Source: an uncultured Candidatus Saccharibacteria bacterium
GTDB taxonomy: Bacteria; Patescibacteriota; Minisyncoccia; Minisyncoccales; UBA10102
Direction of reading: 5' to 3'
Assembly: GCA_964479725.1 (NCBI GenBank)
Contig: CAYZNF010000007.1
Location: 1 to 62,539, forward strand
DNA length: 62,539 bases
Part shown: positions 10,953 through 32,292 of the stretch, one piece after another
Position numbering within the stretch: position 1 is the stretch's first letter
Layout: every line of letters begins with the position of its first letter
Notes under the pieces: generated by a model
What the model was told of the DNA's origin: nothing
The model's database searches: none
What the model saw: the letters and a program-made list of their open reading frames with translations, nothing else
Translations under genes and position numbers: made by a program

Positions 10953-10958
10953 CTGTGA

Positions 10959-11018
10959 AAAGCCGTACTTTGCACAATTCTGTGCAAAGTACGGCTTTAC
11001 ACACACGGCTTTACACAC
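10959..11018. repeat. 18-bp perfect inverted repeat plus 14-bp tandem duplication
   Basis: AAAGCCGTACTTTGCACA-attc-TGTGCAAAGTACGGCTTT (10959-10998); ACGGCTTTACACAC x2 (10991-11018). Confidence 0.85.
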
Positions 11019-11047: not shown

Positions 11048-11479
11048 GTGGTGTGGTATAAGGAAAGTGTGCAGGAAAAAAGTATTGAAAATTTAAAAGA
11101 AAATATAGCAAAGGTTCTTGAAGAGGAAGAAGAGGTTTTGTTCGCGTATATTTTTGGTTCTTTTGTGCGGGGAGATGCTATAGGAAGCAGTGATATTGAT
11201 ATTGCGGTCTTTCTATCACCCGAATCCCATGCAACTTTTTTTGAAAAACGTTTGGAACTTATGGAGAAGTTGACTCGGGGGTTAAGAAGAGATGCAGACG
11301 TAATTATATTGAATACCTCCTCTCCGTTTTTGCGGTATGCAGTTCTTAAAGAAGGTATTTTGACGGTAAATCAAGATTCGAAGGCGCGTCTTGAATTTGA
11401 GTTGAGAACTATGAATGAATATTTTGATTACAAGCCCATCTTGAAACTGTATAGAGAGCGGTTGGGCGTTGACGCATGA
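11048..11479 (+). CDS. mntA: MntA-type minimal nucleotidyltransferase (type VII TA antitoxin)
   Basis: YIFGSFVRGD...SDIDIAV; 4-nt overlap with the HEPN gene. Confidence 0.9.
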   Translation: MVWYKESVQEKSIENLKENIAKVLEEEEEVLFAYIFGSFVRGDAIGSSDIDIAVFLSPESHATFFEKRLELMEKLTRGLRRDADVIILNTSSPFLRYAVLKEGILTVNQDSKARLEFELRTMNEYFDYKPILKLYRERLGVDA

Positions 11480-11907
11480 CATCGCTTGCAAAAGAAAAAA
11501 TCTTCGAAAAACTTGAGAATTTCGGGGAATATCTAAAATATCTTCGTCAACTTGAAAAAGAAGCTGGCGAAGAAGCTGCATTTATTGCTGATTTTCGCTT
11601 GTTTGGAAGTGTGGAGCGTTATCTTCAGCTTTCGATACAATCCGTTATAGATATCGCCCATCTGCTTATTATTGATCTTAATCTTAAAAGGCCAGAGGAT
11701 AATTATGAAGCGATTTCGCTTCTCCATGACCAAAACATTGTTTCTGGCGATCTTGCGCAAATTCTTACTCGAATGATAGGATTGCGAAATATTTTAGTGC
11801 ATGAATACGGAAAAATCGATAGGGCAAAGATATATGAGGTCTTGAAGAATCAACTTTATGATTTAGAGCGTTTTCAGAAGGAAATTCTTGGGTATCTTGA
11901 AAAATAA
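11476..11907 (+). CDS. hepT: HepT/DUF86 HEPN ribonuclease toxin
   Basis: GLRNILVHEY (R-X4-H-X-Y) motif; VERYLQLSIQ. Confidence 0.9.
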   Translation: MTSLAKEKIFEKLENFGEYLKYLRQLEKEAGEEAAFIADFRLFGSVERYLQLSIQSVIDIAHLLIIDLNLKRPEDNYEAISLLHDQNIVSGDLAQILTRMIGLRNILVHEYGKIDRAKIYEVLKNQLYDLERFQKEILGYLEK

Positions 11908-11930: not shown

Positions 11931-12914
11931 ATGGAACAAGCAATACGGAATTTTGCCAAACAATTTGAATGGGAGCCGAAGATAGAGAACGAAGACAAGC
12001 TCCAGCGGAGTGGCAAATATCTTGTCTGTGGCATGGGAGGGTCGCATTTGGCGGGGGATATATTTCAAACCGTCGCCAACGGCTTCGATTTGTCTGTACA
12101 TCAGGATTATGATTTACCCTCCTGGCCAGACGAAACGCTAAAGAAAACTCTTATTATTGCCAGTTCGTATTCCGGCAACACCGAAGAAACAATCAGCGCT
12201 TTTGAGGAGGCGGTAAATAGAGGATATCCTGCGGCGGCAATCGCTGTTGGCGGTAAACTGATTGAACTGGCGAAAAAACATGGCGTTCCTTATATCCAAA
12301 TGCCCGATACCGGAATCCAGCCTCGCTCGGCGCTTGGTTTTTCATTTAAGGCTTTGGCAAAACTGATAGGAAGGGAAGATTTACTGCGGGAAGCAGGAGA
12401 GCTGGCTTTTGTGCTTCGTCCCGACGACTTTGAAAATCCCGGAAAGCAACTGGCGGAAATGCTGATAAAAAAGATTCCGGTTATTTATGCCTCAAATAAA
12501 AATTATTCGATTGCCTATAATTGGAAAATAAAGTTCAATGAAACGGGCAAAATTCCAGCGTTTTATAACGTTCTTCCCGAGCTTAACCACAACGAAATGA
12601 CGGGCTTTTCCGCCAGAGGCGGATCCGCCTCTGGCGGAGACGTAAAGGAGCTTTCACATAATTTTTCTTTTATAATCCTGCGAGATATCAGCGACCCGCC
12701 CAAAATACAAAAAAGAATGGAAATTCTGGAAAAATTGTATGATAATAGGGGGCTACAGGTTATTGTAGTTCCTTTGAACGGGTCTTCTGTACTGCAAAAG
12801 ATTTTTTCATCACTTTTGCTTGCCGATTGGGCGGCTTATTATACTGCCAAAAATTACGGCCTGGAGGCAGAACAAGTTCCTATGGTAGAGGAATTTAAAC
12901 GCCTTATGTTATAA
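11931..12914 (+). CDS. Bifunctional phosphoglucose/phosphomannose isomerase (SIS domains); alternative TTG start 11910
   Basis: CGMGGSHLAGD, SSYSGNTEET, QPRSALG, WKIKFNETGK, PELNHNE. Confidence 0.92.
   Translation: MEQAIRNFAKQFEWEPKIENEDKLQRSGKYLVCGMGGSHLAGDIFQTVANGFDLSVHQDYDLPSWPDETLKKTLIIASSYSGNTEETISAFEEAVNRGYPAAAIAVGGKLIELAKKHGVPYIQMPDTGIQPRSALGFSFKALAKLIGREDLLREAGELAFVLRPDDFENPGKQLAEMLIKKIPVIYASNKNYSIAYNWKIKFNETGKIPAFYNVLPELNHNEMTGFSARGGSASGGDVKELSHNFSFIILRDISDPPKIQKRMEILEKLYDNRGLQVIVVPLNGSSVLQKIFSSLLLADWAAYYTAKNYGLEAEQVPMVEEFKRLML
12609..12638. repeat. Perfect 30-bp palindrome inserted in frame in pgi/pmi
   Basis: TCCGCCAGAGGCGGATCCGCCTCTGGCGGA equals its own reverse complement; encodes SARGGSASGG. 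Confidence 0.92.
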
Positions 12915-12963: not shown

Positions 12964-13251
12964 ATGAGGAAAACAGCGATTCTTTTTATTGGTATTTTTG
13001 CCTTCTTGGTATCGGCAGGAGTTTTGAGTTACGTTTTGTTTTTTGGCCAAAGGGAAAAACAGCAATCTGCTCCTAAGGTTGCTCCGATAGAGCGGGGACA
13101 GTCTTCTGGCATGGGTGGCAATCTCTACGAAAAATCAAATAATCCGGCGGCACAGCTTCCCGACACTAATCCTTTTGAAGCAGAAACAAATCCTTTCCGG
13201 GAAACAAAAACCAATCCCTTTGAGGAGGGGTATAAAAATCCTTTTGAATAA
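12964..13251 (+). CDS. Small single-TM protein with four C-terminal NPF repeats
   Basis: TM, then PDTNPF-EAETNPF-RETKTNPF-EEGYKNPFE. Confidence 0.8.
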   Translation: MRKTAILFIGIFAFLVSAGVLSYVLFFGQREKQQSAPKVAPIERGQSSGMGGNLYEKSNNPAAQLPDTNPFEAETNPFRETKTNPFEEGYKNPFE

Positions 13252-14822
13252 TGGTTATATTCTCTCTTTTTTTGCGAAAAAGCGTTTTTCTCTTTTTGGG
13301 AGCAGGAATACTCGTGTTTGGTGGTTTGACTGCTTTTGCTGTAAGTAAAGATGACATTCAGTATCCGATAGCAGAGTTGGGACAATGCGAAAGCGAAGAA
13401 GCCTGCAAAACATACTGCGAAGAACCCGCGAACAGGAAAAGCTGTTTAGCATATGCCGCACAACACAACCTTCTTTCAAAGGAAGAGATTGAGCTTGCGG
13501 AAAAATTTGTGGAAATAAAAAACGGGCCTGGGGGATGCGTCACGGAAGAATCCTGCAAAGCATATTGCAATGAAATCTCCAATATTTCTGAATGTCTTGC
13601 TTTTGCCGAAAAACACAACCTTATGGGTGAAGATGAGCTGAAAGAAGCTAAGAAGGTGGCTAAAGCGCTCCAAGAGGGTGTTCAAATGCCGGGAGGATGT
13701 ACCACCAAGGAGCAGTGCGAAGCATATTGTGAAGACCCAAACAATCTTCCCCGGTGTATCGATTTCGCGGAAAAAGCCGGATTTTTGGAAGGAGATGAGC
13801 TGAAGGAGGCAAAACAAATCGTGAAAGCGCTGGAGGCAGGGGTAACGCTTCCTGGGGGATGCCGCCAGAAGGAAGAGTGTGAAGCTTATTGTGAGGATGA
13901 GGCAAATACAGAGGAGTGCTTTAATTTCGCAGTCGCCGCAGGTTTCATTGCGCCAGAAGAGGTTGAGGACGCGAAAAAAGTTTTGCCCCTAATGAAGGCC
14001 GGAAAAATGCCAGGAGGCTGTAAGAGCAAAGAAAGCTGTGAGGCATATTGCACAAAAGATGAAAACGTTGAAGAATGCGTGACGTTTTTCACAGAAGCCG
14101 GTTTTATGACAGCAGAGGATGCTAAGGTGTTTAGGAAAACAGGCGGCAAGGGCCCTGGCGATTGCAAGAGCAAGGAAGAATGCGAGAATTTTTGCAATAA
14201 TCCAGACAATCAACAGGTATGTTTTGATTTCGCCAAGGAGCATGGCTTGATTTCGGAGGAAGAATTAAAGAAAATGGAAGAGGGAATGGAAGGATTAAAG
14301 AAAGGCCTTGAGGAATCTCCCGCAGAAATAAAAGAATGCCTCGAAGCAAAAATTGGAACCGAAATCTTAGAAAAAATAGTGGCCGGCACTCTTATGCCTG
14401 GCCAAGAAATTGGAGATCAGGTAAGAAGCTGTTTCGATGAATTTCCCAATCAGCAGAGGCAAGATGGCGATGGACGGGGAGGATTTGAGCCTGCCAATGA
14501 TCGGGCACGAGAAATAAGGGGTCCTGGGGGTTGCTCGAGCCCCGAAGAATGCCAGACTTATTGTTCAGATCCCAGTCATAACGAAGAGTGTGGCACTTTT
14601 AAGCGTCCGGACGGGGCTGGAGATGAAAACCGTTCTTCTGGTGCGCAAGACGAGAATTTTCAGCGGATCCAAGAAGAAGAAATGAGAAAACGCATGGAAG
14701 AAGAAACGCAGCGGCGTATTGAGGAAGAAACAAGAAGACGCATGGAAATGGAAGCGGAAAGGATTAGGTTGTCTATACCGTCACCACAAGAAGGAGGAGA
14801 ACTGCACCAAGGCCAAGAGTAA
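13251..14822 (+). CDS. Secreted Cys-rich repeat protein (7 x C-x5-C-x3-C-x8-C)
   Basis: Signal peptide; repeats such as PGGCKSKESCEAYCTKDENVEEC; charged low-complexity C-terminus. Confidence 0.85.
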   Translation: MVIFSLFLRKSVFLFLGAGILVFGGLTAFAVSKDDIQYPIAELGQCESEEACKTYCEEPANRKSCLAYAAQHNLLSKEEIELAEKFVEIKNGPGGCVTEESCKAYCNEISNISECLAFAEKHNLMGEDELKEAKKVAKALQEGVQMPGGCTTKEQCEAYCEDPNNLPRCIDFAEKAGFLEGDELKEAKQIVKALEAGVTLPGGCRQKEECEAYCEDEANTEECFNFAVAAGFIAPEEVEDAKKVLPLMKAGKMPGGCKSKESCEAYCTKDENVEECVTFFTEAGFMTAEDAKVFRKTGGKGPGDCKSKEECENFCNNPDNQQVCFDFAKEHGLISEEELKKMEEGMEGLKKGLEESPAEIKECLEAKIGTEILEKIVAGTLMPGQEIGDQVRSCFDEFPNQQRQDGDGRGGFEPANDRAREIRGPGGCSSPEECQTYCSDPSHNEECGTFKRPDGAGDENRSSGAQDENFQRIQEEEMRKRMEEETQRRIEEETRRRMEMEAERIRLSIPSPQEGGELHQGQE

Positions 14823-31631: not shown

Positions 31632-31670
31632 AGCTATGCTAAATTTACACGATCGTGGATTTTTTGTATA
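31632..31670. repeat. CACGATCGTG-core imperfect palindrome (copy 1), overlapping the promoter of the PaaX-like gene
   Basis: AGCTATGCTAAATTTACACGATCGTGGATTTTTTGTATA. Confidence 0.75.
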
Positions 31671-31677
31671 ATGAAGT

Positions 31678-32223
31678 ATGGATGAATATGCGAGGAAAAA
31701 ATTATTAGCACTGTTATTTGCTGGTATGGCGCTAGGATTTTCTTATACTCCCCAGCGTCGTCAAAAAATTTATAGCTCCACAAAGAGATATTTAAAGTAT
31801 CTTGACGAGCGTAAATTAAAAAACGAGATTCGAAAAATGTATCGTACCAAACTTATAAGATATAAAGAGAATTCCGACAAATCTATTACGCTTATATTAA
31901 CGGATAAGGGTAAAATGAAAGCGTTGACGTATCGCTTTGAGGAGATGACTATTTATCCTCCCAAAAAATGGGATGGCAAGTGGAGGATTGTCATCTTTGA
32001 CATTCCAGAAAAATTAAGGCAGGGGAGAGACGCTCTTCGCACTAAACTTATTCAAATTGGTTTCCTGGAATTCCAAAAAAGTGTTTTTGTTTTTCCGTAC
32101 CCATGCGAAAATGAACTAGACTTTATTATCGAATTTTTTAATCTCCGTCCCTATGTAAGAGTGGGTATATTGGAAAACATTGATAATGCAGCCGATCTTA
32201 AACATAAGTTCGATCTTCCTTAG
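31678..32223 (+). CDS. PaaX-family wHTH plus Cas2-like ferredoxin-fold protein
   Basis: LILTDKGK wing; KWDGKWRIVIFDIPE...RDALR..L...GF...QKSVFV.PY; no CRISPR array nearby. Confidence 0.88.
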   Translation: MDEYARKKLLALLFAGMALGFSYTPQRRQKIYSSTKRYLKYLDERKLKNEIRKMYRTKLIRYKENSDKSITLILTDKGKMKALTYRFEEMTIYPPKKWDGKWRIVIFDIPEKLRQGRDALRTKLIQIGFLEFQKSVFVFPYPCENELDFIIEFFNLRPYVRVGILENIDNAADLKHKFDLP

Positions 32224-32240
32224 AAGATATCTGATTATAA

Positions 32241-32292
32241 AATTTAGCTATACATAAAAGCCACGATCGTGGCTTTTATGTATAGCTAAATT
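32241..32292. repeat. Perfect 52-bp palindrome with CACGATCGTG core (copy 2)
   Basis: AATTTAGCTATACATAAAAGCCACGA|TCGTGGCTTTTATGTATAGCTAAATT. Confidence 0.92.

Follow-up and report, generated by a model that had tools for sequence, protein, structure and literature searches.

A palindromic double hairpin within pgi

The window analysed here is the whole 62,539-nt stretch of contig CAYZNF010000007.1 (assembly GCA_964479725.1), from an uncultured Candidatus Saccharibacteria bacterium. Its pgi gene (11931-12914, + strand) encodes a 327-residue bifunctional phosphoglucose/phosphomannose isomerase (PGI/PMI) that carries a 30-bp palindromic element in frame. The enzyme has two SIS domains and is identified by Pfam (bact-PGI_C, PF10432, 5.9e-42, plus PF01380), by NCBIfam (TIGR02128, 221.6 bits against a cutoff of 213.9) and by homology to the Pyrobaculum aerophilum PGI/PMI (1TZB); its closest named relatives belong to Ca. 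Wildermuthbacteria and other Patescibacteria (56-71% identity). The element, TCCGCCAGAGGCGGATCCGCCTCTGGCGGA at 12609-12638 on the + strand, is a perfect 30-bp reverse-complement palindrome with no match in 100 dinucleotide-preserving shuffles. As the first-pass annotation of this DNA had stated, it is translated within pgi, adds SARGGSASGG (residues 227-236) directly after the conserved NHNEMTGF motif (12585-12608, + strand; invariant alignment columns), and has a GC content far above that of the gene (0.733 compared with 0.432 for the remainder of pgi).

Each 15-nt half of the 30-mer forms its own hairpin, in which a 6-bp stem closes a 3-nt loop; both hairpins are of the T subtype. Hairpin 1 (12609-12623), TCCGCC-AGA-GGCGGA, has a purine-rich loop and a DNA fold of -5.9 kcal/mol (z = -4.6), and hairpin 2 (12624-12638), TCCGCC-TCT-GGCGGA, is an inverted copy of the hairpin 1 unit with a T-Y-Y loop and reaches -5.9 kcal/mol alone; as single-stranded DNA (ssDNA), the complete 30-mer folds with -17.5 kcal/mol (z = -6.7). 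This is the sole adjacent pair of GC-rich 6-bp-stem hairpins in the window (shuffles, 0), and no further copies, half-copies or generalised double hairpins were found elsewhere in the 62.5 kb, where the element is single-copy. Rfam gave no relevant match over the 12609-12638 region. The left junction, TTT (Phe226, 12606-12608, + strand), and the right junction, GAC (Asp, 12639-12641, + strand), are also found in alleles without the insert; the former thus belongs to the target and lies outside the element, and there is no target-site duplication.

Within the enzyme, the insert begins seven residues past the His of the catalytic motif. This residue, His220 (12588-12590), aligns with His219 of the P. 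aerophilum protein, which we take from the structural literature to be catalytic. The only solved homologue is 1TZB, whose alignment to the window protein stops at GF226. In the AlphaFold2 model (mean predicted local distance difference test score, pLDDT, of 88.5), a single segment, residues 218-235, falls below 50, and the insert occupies the coil between strand 211-215 and helix 237-242. A structure model had been proposed as a check, with a surface loop expected, and the insert indeed lies in the only low-confidence coil (pLDDT <50): it is near the active site in sequence, yet within a length-variable loop that the model predicts to be flexible. That the insert is kept in many lineages argues that the enzyme tolerates it.

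Filled and empty alleles of pgi

Among the 111 best orthologue hits with a recognisable motif, 98 lack these ten residues and read GF|D[VAI]xDSTxxLS (empty alleles), and the other 13 carry SA[KRGAQ]GG[SP]A[SFTP]GG between GF and D (filled alleles), which bears out the earlier proposal of a frame-preserving miniature palindromic insertion in a core enzyme. Comparison of DNA from ten filled alleles and one empty allele places exactly 30 bp between the Phe and Asp codons, with neither duplication nor loss at the junctions. In all ten, the insert reads TCCGCC-NNN-GGCGGA-[T/C]CCGCC-NNN-GGCGG[A/G], whereas the codons around it (Asn, Thr, Gly, Phe, Asp, Val) vary freely at synonymous sites; given the peptide and the codon usage of the window, the probability of exactly these eight stem codons is ~1e-5 per lineage. 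Because the stem codons are fixed while neighbouring codons are free, the conserved entity is the DNA and not the peptide.

The loop from GF to the next F-x-F has 12 residues in empty alleles and 22 in one filled allele, P0112, so that the clean ten-residue indel that had been anticipated is found there exactly; other filled alleles have lost 1-4 residues, the loop measuring 20-21 residues in most of them and 18 in the window, where ~4 residues are missing downstream. Small secondary deletions came after the insertion in filled alleles other than P0112. That the insertion is recent, as first described, is not shown by this comparison: at least 13 diverged orthologues have the site filled, the window allele has already lost downstream residues, and no empty pgi allele was seen in the window's own metagenomes.

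Filled alleles are scattered over the gene tree, and the nearest tree neighbours of the filled alleles P0007 (98% identical), P0030, P0046, P0080, P0091, P0108 and P0112 are all empty. P0007 and the empty P0009 are 100% identical across the first 674 nt, differ at the insert and over ~48 nt downstream, and are identical beyond; the difference is confined to a ~80-nt patch, and the insert is polymorphic between near-identical strains. This mosaic tract is typical of homologous recombination. The subtype of the element is also discordant with the pgi tree: a single base separates the window copy (T/T subtype, loops AGA/TCT) from that of P0112, though the P0112 backbone is ~60% identical, whereas relatives nearer to the window have the T/C subtype with an AAA loop.

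Three filled sites hold altered copies. In the pgi genes of P0003 and P0005 (L002, 6655-6720, and L211), a nested 21-nt GC-rich piece lies at the element centre (GGCG|GA) and adds seven residues, reading CCCGCCTGCCGGCTGGGCAGG in one allele and CCCTGCCCGACGGCGGGCGGG in the other, with the two orientations scoring about equally (10 vs 12). The pgi of P0108 (L212) contains a decayed copy, SAKGGPAS, in which hairpin 1 is kept and hairpin 2 is reduced to its left arm and loop; a deletion has removed its right arm together with ~ten downstream codons, restoring the normal protein length of 320 residues.

A dispersed family of paired hairpins

One genome per GTDB species was scanned with the pattern TCCGCCNNNGGCGGANCCGCCNNNGGCGG, and the matches listed comprise at least 126 distinct sites in at least 120 stretches. 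The scan is restricted to this pattern, under which the invariance of the stems holds. The family unit consists of two inverted 15-nt hairpins placed back to back without a spacer, TCCGCC-NNA-GGCGGA + YCCGCC-TNN-GGCGGR, that is, a consensus hairpin [T/C]CCGCC-NNA-GGCGG[A/G] followed by the same hairpin unit on the opposite strand. Loop 1 is [A/G/C][A/G]A and loop 2 is T[C/T][C/T/G]; therefore, either strand has a purine-loop hairpin and then a pyrimidine-loop hairpin. The two loops vary independently, being complementary (a perfect palindrome) in 17 of the 126 listed copies against 16.7 expected. Thus, the perfect 30-bp symmetry in the window, which the first-pass annotation had treated as meaningful, is a coincidence, and the conserved unit is the pair of 15-nt hairpins rather than the symmetry of the whole. 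The closing pair of hairpin 2 (E16/E30) co-varies (T-A in 92, C-G in 25 and other combinations in 9 of the 126), and degenerate neighbours of the family have compensated stems, e.g., CCCTCC/GGAGGG and CCCGCT/AGCGGG, which together argue that the hairpins themselves are maintained.

The left flank is T-rich (T at -2 in 103 of 122 sites), and the right flank is A-rich, with A at +2 in 93 and a purine at +1 in 91 of the 122; flank complementarity is at background beyond ±3 nt. Alleles of pgi that lack the insert have the same flanking residues, so that TT|RA is a junction preference that lies outside the element. The flanking residues of the sites in ValRS (GYF|NP), CysRS (I|D), PheT (YF|D) and RecG (M|K) are presumably also present without an insert in E. 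coli and B. subtilis.

Some copies belong to larger structures. In the Omnitrophota metagenome-assembled genome (MAG) BS750m-G21 (L080, 7360-7460; L103, 680-780 and 2390-2490), the element is centred in inverted heptamer-like repeat arrays, (GGTTACA/GGTTTCA)n-TTT-[element]-AAA-(CCTGTAA)n, and is itself the tip of a far longer composite palindrome. In a Kiritimatiellae MAG (L012, 4587 and 6408; L073, 7325), it lies within a larger repeat with at least 40 nt of identical flank on one side; therefore, not all copies are independent 30-bp insertions.

Host range and abundance

Every listed match comes from a MAG or a single-amplified genome record. By the taxon labels written in the record titles, 52 of the 120 listed loci belong to the candidate phyla radiation (CPR)/Patescibacteria, including Saccharibacteria, and the others span at least ten other named groups, so that the earlier label of a CPR element is too narrow. 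Among the matches listed, these are Omnitrophota (18), 'uncultured Gammaproteobacteria' (11), Planctomycetota (5), Kiritimatiellae and Chloroflexota (4 each), Ignavibacteria (3), Verrucomicrobiota, Lentisphaerae and Bacteroidota (2 each), and Acidobacteria, Firestonebacteria, Desulfotomaculaceae, Deltaproteobacteria and Eubacteriales (1 each), with 12 loci unclassified; the GC content of the element-bearing loci ranges from 0.33 to 0.70. The hosts include 0.7-1.65 Mb contigs of the MFD series (L022, L044, L101, L106), which we take to be long-read assemblies, and one single-cell genome. Mis-binning and assembly artefact cannot account for this taxonomic spread.

The abundance of the element was estimated from Logan contigs of the four groundwater metagenome runs that contain the window. 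Summed word depth over 12605-12658 is 1,200-80,000 in these runs, compared with ~5 for the remainder of pgi, and 144-516 contigs per run align here, most of them matching the element alone. The non-matching parts of the contigs begin at 12605/6 and 12638/40 and agree poorly among themselves, and therefore represent many different sequence contexts; Logan contigs also break within the element. The count of copies that the first-pass annotation had called for thus gives a split answer, with high repetition elsewhere (at least 126 sites) and a single copy in the window. Phages were rejected as carriers: in IMG/VR, only 3 contigs contain the element, and no full-length match was found in 50,697 phage and 72,556 plasmid records. 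The literature yielded analogues only and no published description of this 30-bp repeat sequence; that all sampled hosts are uncultured may be why.

Coding context and reading frame

In open reading frames (ORFs) of at least 150 residues, 63 of the listed copies are read as SAxGGSAxGG, 5 as PPxADPPxAE and 10 as RQRRIRLRRK, whereas in short ORFs the listed copies are distributed 17/15/16 over the same frames; the SAxGGSAxGG frame is the same on both strands. This bias is partly mechanical, because one insertion phase would create TAA or TGA. TT|RA sites in the window genes fall into codon phases 375/202/5, and target phase alone predicts ~50/27/1, or about 64% in frame 0, so that we reject pure selection as its explanation. 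The in-frame excess proposed as a check is nevertheless real beyond phase: the observed 63:5 is far above the 1.9:1 expected, and therefore the Pro/Asp-rich frame is also selected against.

A Pfam scan of 20 host ORFs matched a family in 19 (none for L056). The hosts include RNA polymerase β' (rpoC), DNA polymerase III α (dnaE), UvrA, UvrB, UvrC, Mfd, RecG, PheT (two copies in one gene), CysRS, class I and class II aminoacyl-tRNA synthetases, DnaJ, HsdR, an E2 acyltransferase, ArsA, GH57 and a solute-binding protein. Translations judged by eye add DnaK (L077) and the C-terminal tails of L5-like and S3-like proteins (L034) as candidate hosts. The latter two lie in a Patescibacteria ribosomal-protein operon (L034, 1-4400) in a stretch with three element copies in 6.6 kb, and their tails read …GFPISAKGGPASGGK and …GEVFSAEGGSARGGEGH, respectively. 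Three Ignavibacteria proteins (L044, 6021; L062, 390; L101, 2838) carry the element at the same relative position, following a Phe in a C-terminal domain that ends …SGVYFY and resembles a type IX secretion system sorting domain; like pgi, they are an example of homologous sequences occupied at one and the same site.

Probable mobility of the element and candidate mechanisms

Pairs of copies from the same MAG share an identical 30-mer in 5 of 26 cases, compared with 3% between genomes (p = 9e-4), and the same loop pair in 8 of 26, compared with 5% (p = 3e-5). Four identical same-MAG pairs with unrelated flanks remain after excluding pairs in larger repeats, and identical copies at unrelated flanks are what within-genome copy-and-paste predicts. 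The palindrome in pgi is one inserted copy of a dispersed double-hairpin family, and we consider it likely that this family is mobile, horizontally spread selfish DNA that is mobilised in trans. The element would move, now or until recently, by copy-and-paste within genomes, and would pass from one lineage to another through horizontal transfer and through homologous recombination of parts of genes. As a plausible mechanism, a trans-acting enzyme (HUH/Y1-type or functionally similar) may recognise the folded hairpins on ssDNA and join them seamlessly, and such selfish DNA could survive wherever its translated product, a flexible S-A-x-G-G-S-A-x-G-G peptide, is harmless.

The window itself encodes a Y1_Tnp protein resembling the transposases associated with repetitive extragenic palindromic (REP) sequences, i.e., a REP-associated tyrosine transposase (RAYT)-like protein (46402-47124, 240 residues; HUH motif NHYHLIV; Pfam 28.4 bits against a cutoff of 23). 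The gene lies between 6-phosphogluconolactonase-like and transaldolase genes, and around it are four GTAG-headed hairpins of one sequence, AGTAAGG-TTTAA-CCTTACT (46328-46346, 46355-46373, 47120-47138 and 47343-47361). As a whole, 46300-47361 shows the classic RAYT/REP layout, here in the genome of a CPR bacterium. Among more than 500 relatives detected in metagenomes, 80 were examined (220 kb), and 50 of these are flanked by their own recurring lineage-specific hairpins. No TCCGCC hairpins were found beside the window gene, its L053 homologue or the 80 metagenomic relatives. The window's RAYT clade was therefore rejected as the driver of the 30-bp element, its flanking hairpins being different. 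As a control, no depth spike was seen at the RAYT's own REPs, though 19 nt may be too short to register. Compared with Y1 HUH elements of the IS200/IS605 type, the 30-bp element has the hairpins and the seamless insertion; its junction preference is the symmetric TT|RA and not, as in those elements, a short specific target at one end, and a matching TnpA was not found.

Several observations weigh against a trans-mobilised element. The mobilising enzyme was not found, the tested RAYT-like genes having no flanking TCCGCC hairpins, and the symmetric TT...AA junctions suit the one-sided target rule of Y1 enzymes poorly. Neither insertion nor excision was caught directly, and the near-identical filled and empty pair differs by a mosaic patch and not by a bare 30-bp indel. 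The 62.5-kb window has one copy, and 220 kb of related CPR DNA contains no doublets. RNA runs with this pgi were sought, and none are listed. The split between coding and non-coding copies uses ORF length as a proxy and not gene calls, and the excess in frame 2 (10 copies where ~1 would be expected) suggests that not every long ORF of a GC-rich contig is a gene.

An enzyme-free route would have the hairpin stall replication, the nascent strand switch template via 2-3 nt of T/A microhomology, copy the block and switch back, with horizontal transfer and homologous recombination doing the rest. We keep this model alive because the junctions are symmetric and no enzyme was found. T-rich and A-rich junctions on both sides without duplication, the failure to find a cognate enzyme among the tested RAYT relatives, the recombination patch that carries the pgi insert between near-identical strains and the low copy density in most CPR DNA sampled all agree with it. 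However, 2-3 bases of microhomology are very little for sharp, identical 30-bp boundaries at at least 126 sites in more than ten named taxa, and hundreds of copies per metagenome, together with identical copies at unrelated genome sites, suggest an efficient process, leaving this route unlikely. It is quite improbable that the element is a REPIN, a doublet of REP sequences, mobilised by a RAYT, possibly that of the window: the inverted hairpin doublet is the REPIN architecture (PMC3337134), insertion occurs without target duplication and the window does encode a Y1_Tnp/RAYT-like protein, but that gene is flanked by different, GTAG-headed hairpins, 50 of 80 relatives have lineage-specific flanking hairpins of their own and 0 of 80 have TCCGCC hairpins, and the element has no GTAG head, is often intragenic and is common to several phyla.

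A 30-mer composed of nothing but a sequence X and then its reverse complement could also be a minimal miniature inverted-repeat transposable element (MITE) that consists solely of the paired 15-bp terminal inverted repeats from a DDE transposon, which abut without internal sequence and are moved by its transposase; MITEs do arise as elements made of ends alone. Here, the absence of target-site duplication in the pgi filled/empty comparisons disfavours an ends-only DDE element; moreover, the flanking TT/AA is inverted and not direct, and neither a transposase nor a parent element was found between the paired copies of L012, L034 and L103, which makes this origin highly improbable. The same site is filled in 13 orthologues and the window copy is a perfect palindrome, as would suit an old pgi-specific enzyme loop whose DNA or mRNA hairpin is kept for pgi regulation, or whose symmetry stems from quasipalindrome correction by template switching. 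The 30-mer also occurs in dozens of unrelated genes and spacers, however, and filled alleles are scattered on the tree, so that the chance of such an origin is very remote. Quasipalindrome correction is in any case not needed, chance loop pairing accounting for the number of perfect palindromes. Palindromes can confuse assemblers, and Logan contigs break here, but the reading frame is preserved, the flanks are orthologous, a stem pair co-varies, there is a frame bias, and the same structure recurs in Illumina assemblies of many studies, in the 0.7-1.65 Mb MFD contigs and in a single-cell genome; the probability of an assembly or sequencing artefact is negligible.

Comparison with known repeat systems

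The first-pass comparison with Rickettsia palindromic elements (RPEs) is apt. RPEs are selfish palindromic repeats of ~150 bp in ten sequence families, reported from Rickettsia species, which lie in frame in unrelated housekeeping genes and are translated as an extra peptide compatible with the fold (PMC10969869). The 30-bp element is likewise found in frame in unrelated genes (the SAxGG frame is used by 63 of the 78 listed copies within long ORFs). Unlike RPEs, each family of which encodes a conserved peptide and has a length of about 100-150 bp, it is five times shorter (30 bp, 10 residues), consists of two mini-hairpins and, occurring in more than ten named bacterial groups, is not lineage-restricted.

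REPINs are short hairpin-forming repeats that occur as inverted doublets (PMC3337134, PMC3116915), and our element resembles them in that two inverted hairpins make one unit, which inserts without target duplication. It departs from them in several respects: REPINs are extragenic, whereas most sampled copies of the element lie inside long ORFs; REPs have a 5' GTAG head, as do those flanking the window's RAYT-like gene, whereas the flank logo of the element is tTT; and a cognate single-copy RAYT is flanked by the same REP, whereas the tested clade has other hairpins or none. REPIN-RAYT systems are reported to be inherited mainly in the vertical line (10.1101/2022.05.22.493013). In contrast to such inheritance with lineage-specific sequences, near-identical 30-mers of our element occur in more than ten named taxa. 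With MITEs of DDE transposons it shares terminal inverted repeats but not a target-site duplication.

In chytrids and fission yeasts, the mitochondrial double-hairpin elements (DHEs) are GC-rich pairs of adjacent hairpins in AT-richer genomes; they are near-identical across species apart from a loop, and lie mostly between genes or in rRNA genes and occasionally in genes (PMC10085805). The bacterial element is also a dispersed GC-rich unit that folds into two adjacent hairpins, but it is often translated and unrelated in sequence, and is thus an analogue of the DHEs and not a member. Palindromic amphipathic repeat coding elements (PARCELs) are dyad-symmetric coding DNA with a patchy distribution among distant microbes, attributed to horizontal transfer (PMC2996958). 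The element shares this symmetry and patchiness; whereas PARCELs form tandem arrays that encode a 25-residue amphipathic domain in surface proteins, it occurs as single 30-bp insertions in housekeeping genes. A further likeness reportedly exists in heterocystous cyanobacteria, to which Elhai et al. 2008 (Genome Res) are said to have found specific hairpin-capable mobile repeats of ~20-30 nt, sometimes nested. Those repeats are said to differ in sequence from the 30-bp element, and reportedly no cross-phylum family of translated inserts was among them.

Implications

The family is real and RPE-like and is apparently an undescribed, ultra-small repeat family. It may, though we rate this somewhat below an even chance, represent an undescribed class of 30-bp mobile DNA that consists of only two protein-recognition hairpins, crosses phyla among uncultivated bacteria, is moved by an activity not linked to any repeat family, and provides a general supply of inserted 10-residue loops for essential proteins (RNA polymerase, DNA polymerase III, tRNA synthetases, ribosomal proteins). 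If so, the element would be among the smallest known interspersed repeats that behave like mobile DNA, and the same sequence in more than ten bacterial groups would be unusual; 'selfish DNA in proteins' of the RPE kind would not be peculiar to Rickettsia but would occur widely in CPR, Omnitrophota and further uncultured lineages, even in the most conserved genes. In practical terms, the repeat breaks short-read assemblies and inflates apparent protein divergence, and it could mark gene flow between episymbionts and their neighbours. It also raises the mechanistic question of what recognises a hairpin of this size, its stem 6 bp and its loop 3 nt, and inserts the pair seamlessly at TT|RA. Because the copies differ only in their loops and one stem pair co-varies, the family is a natural dataset for hairpin-constrained evolution.

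Further features of the window

Immediately upstream of pgi lies an MNT/HepT nucleotidyltransferase-RNase toxin-antitoxin pair (11048-11907), and between this pair and an unannotated gene is an inverted repeat (10954-11003) with 23-nt arms that are 96% complementary and a 4-nt spacer. Downstream of pgi, 13251-14822 encodes a 523-residue protein with no Pfam match and ~8 repeats of a Cys-rich module (…PGGC…E.C..YC…N…C..FA…G…). Elsewhere, a perfect 52-bp palindrome (32241-32292, AATTTAGCTATACATAAAAGCCACGA plus its complement) lies just downstream of a PaaX-like gene with a Cas2-like domain (31678-32223), and an imperfect palindrome just upstream of that gene (31635-31670) shares the core ACGATCGTGG with it; these palindromes may be operator or terminator sites. 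Across the window (1-62539), ~70 of 75 non-overlapping ORFs of at least 70 residues are on the + strand, and the GC skew is positive throughout, with the cumulative skew rising steadily, as if the contig lay on one replichore.

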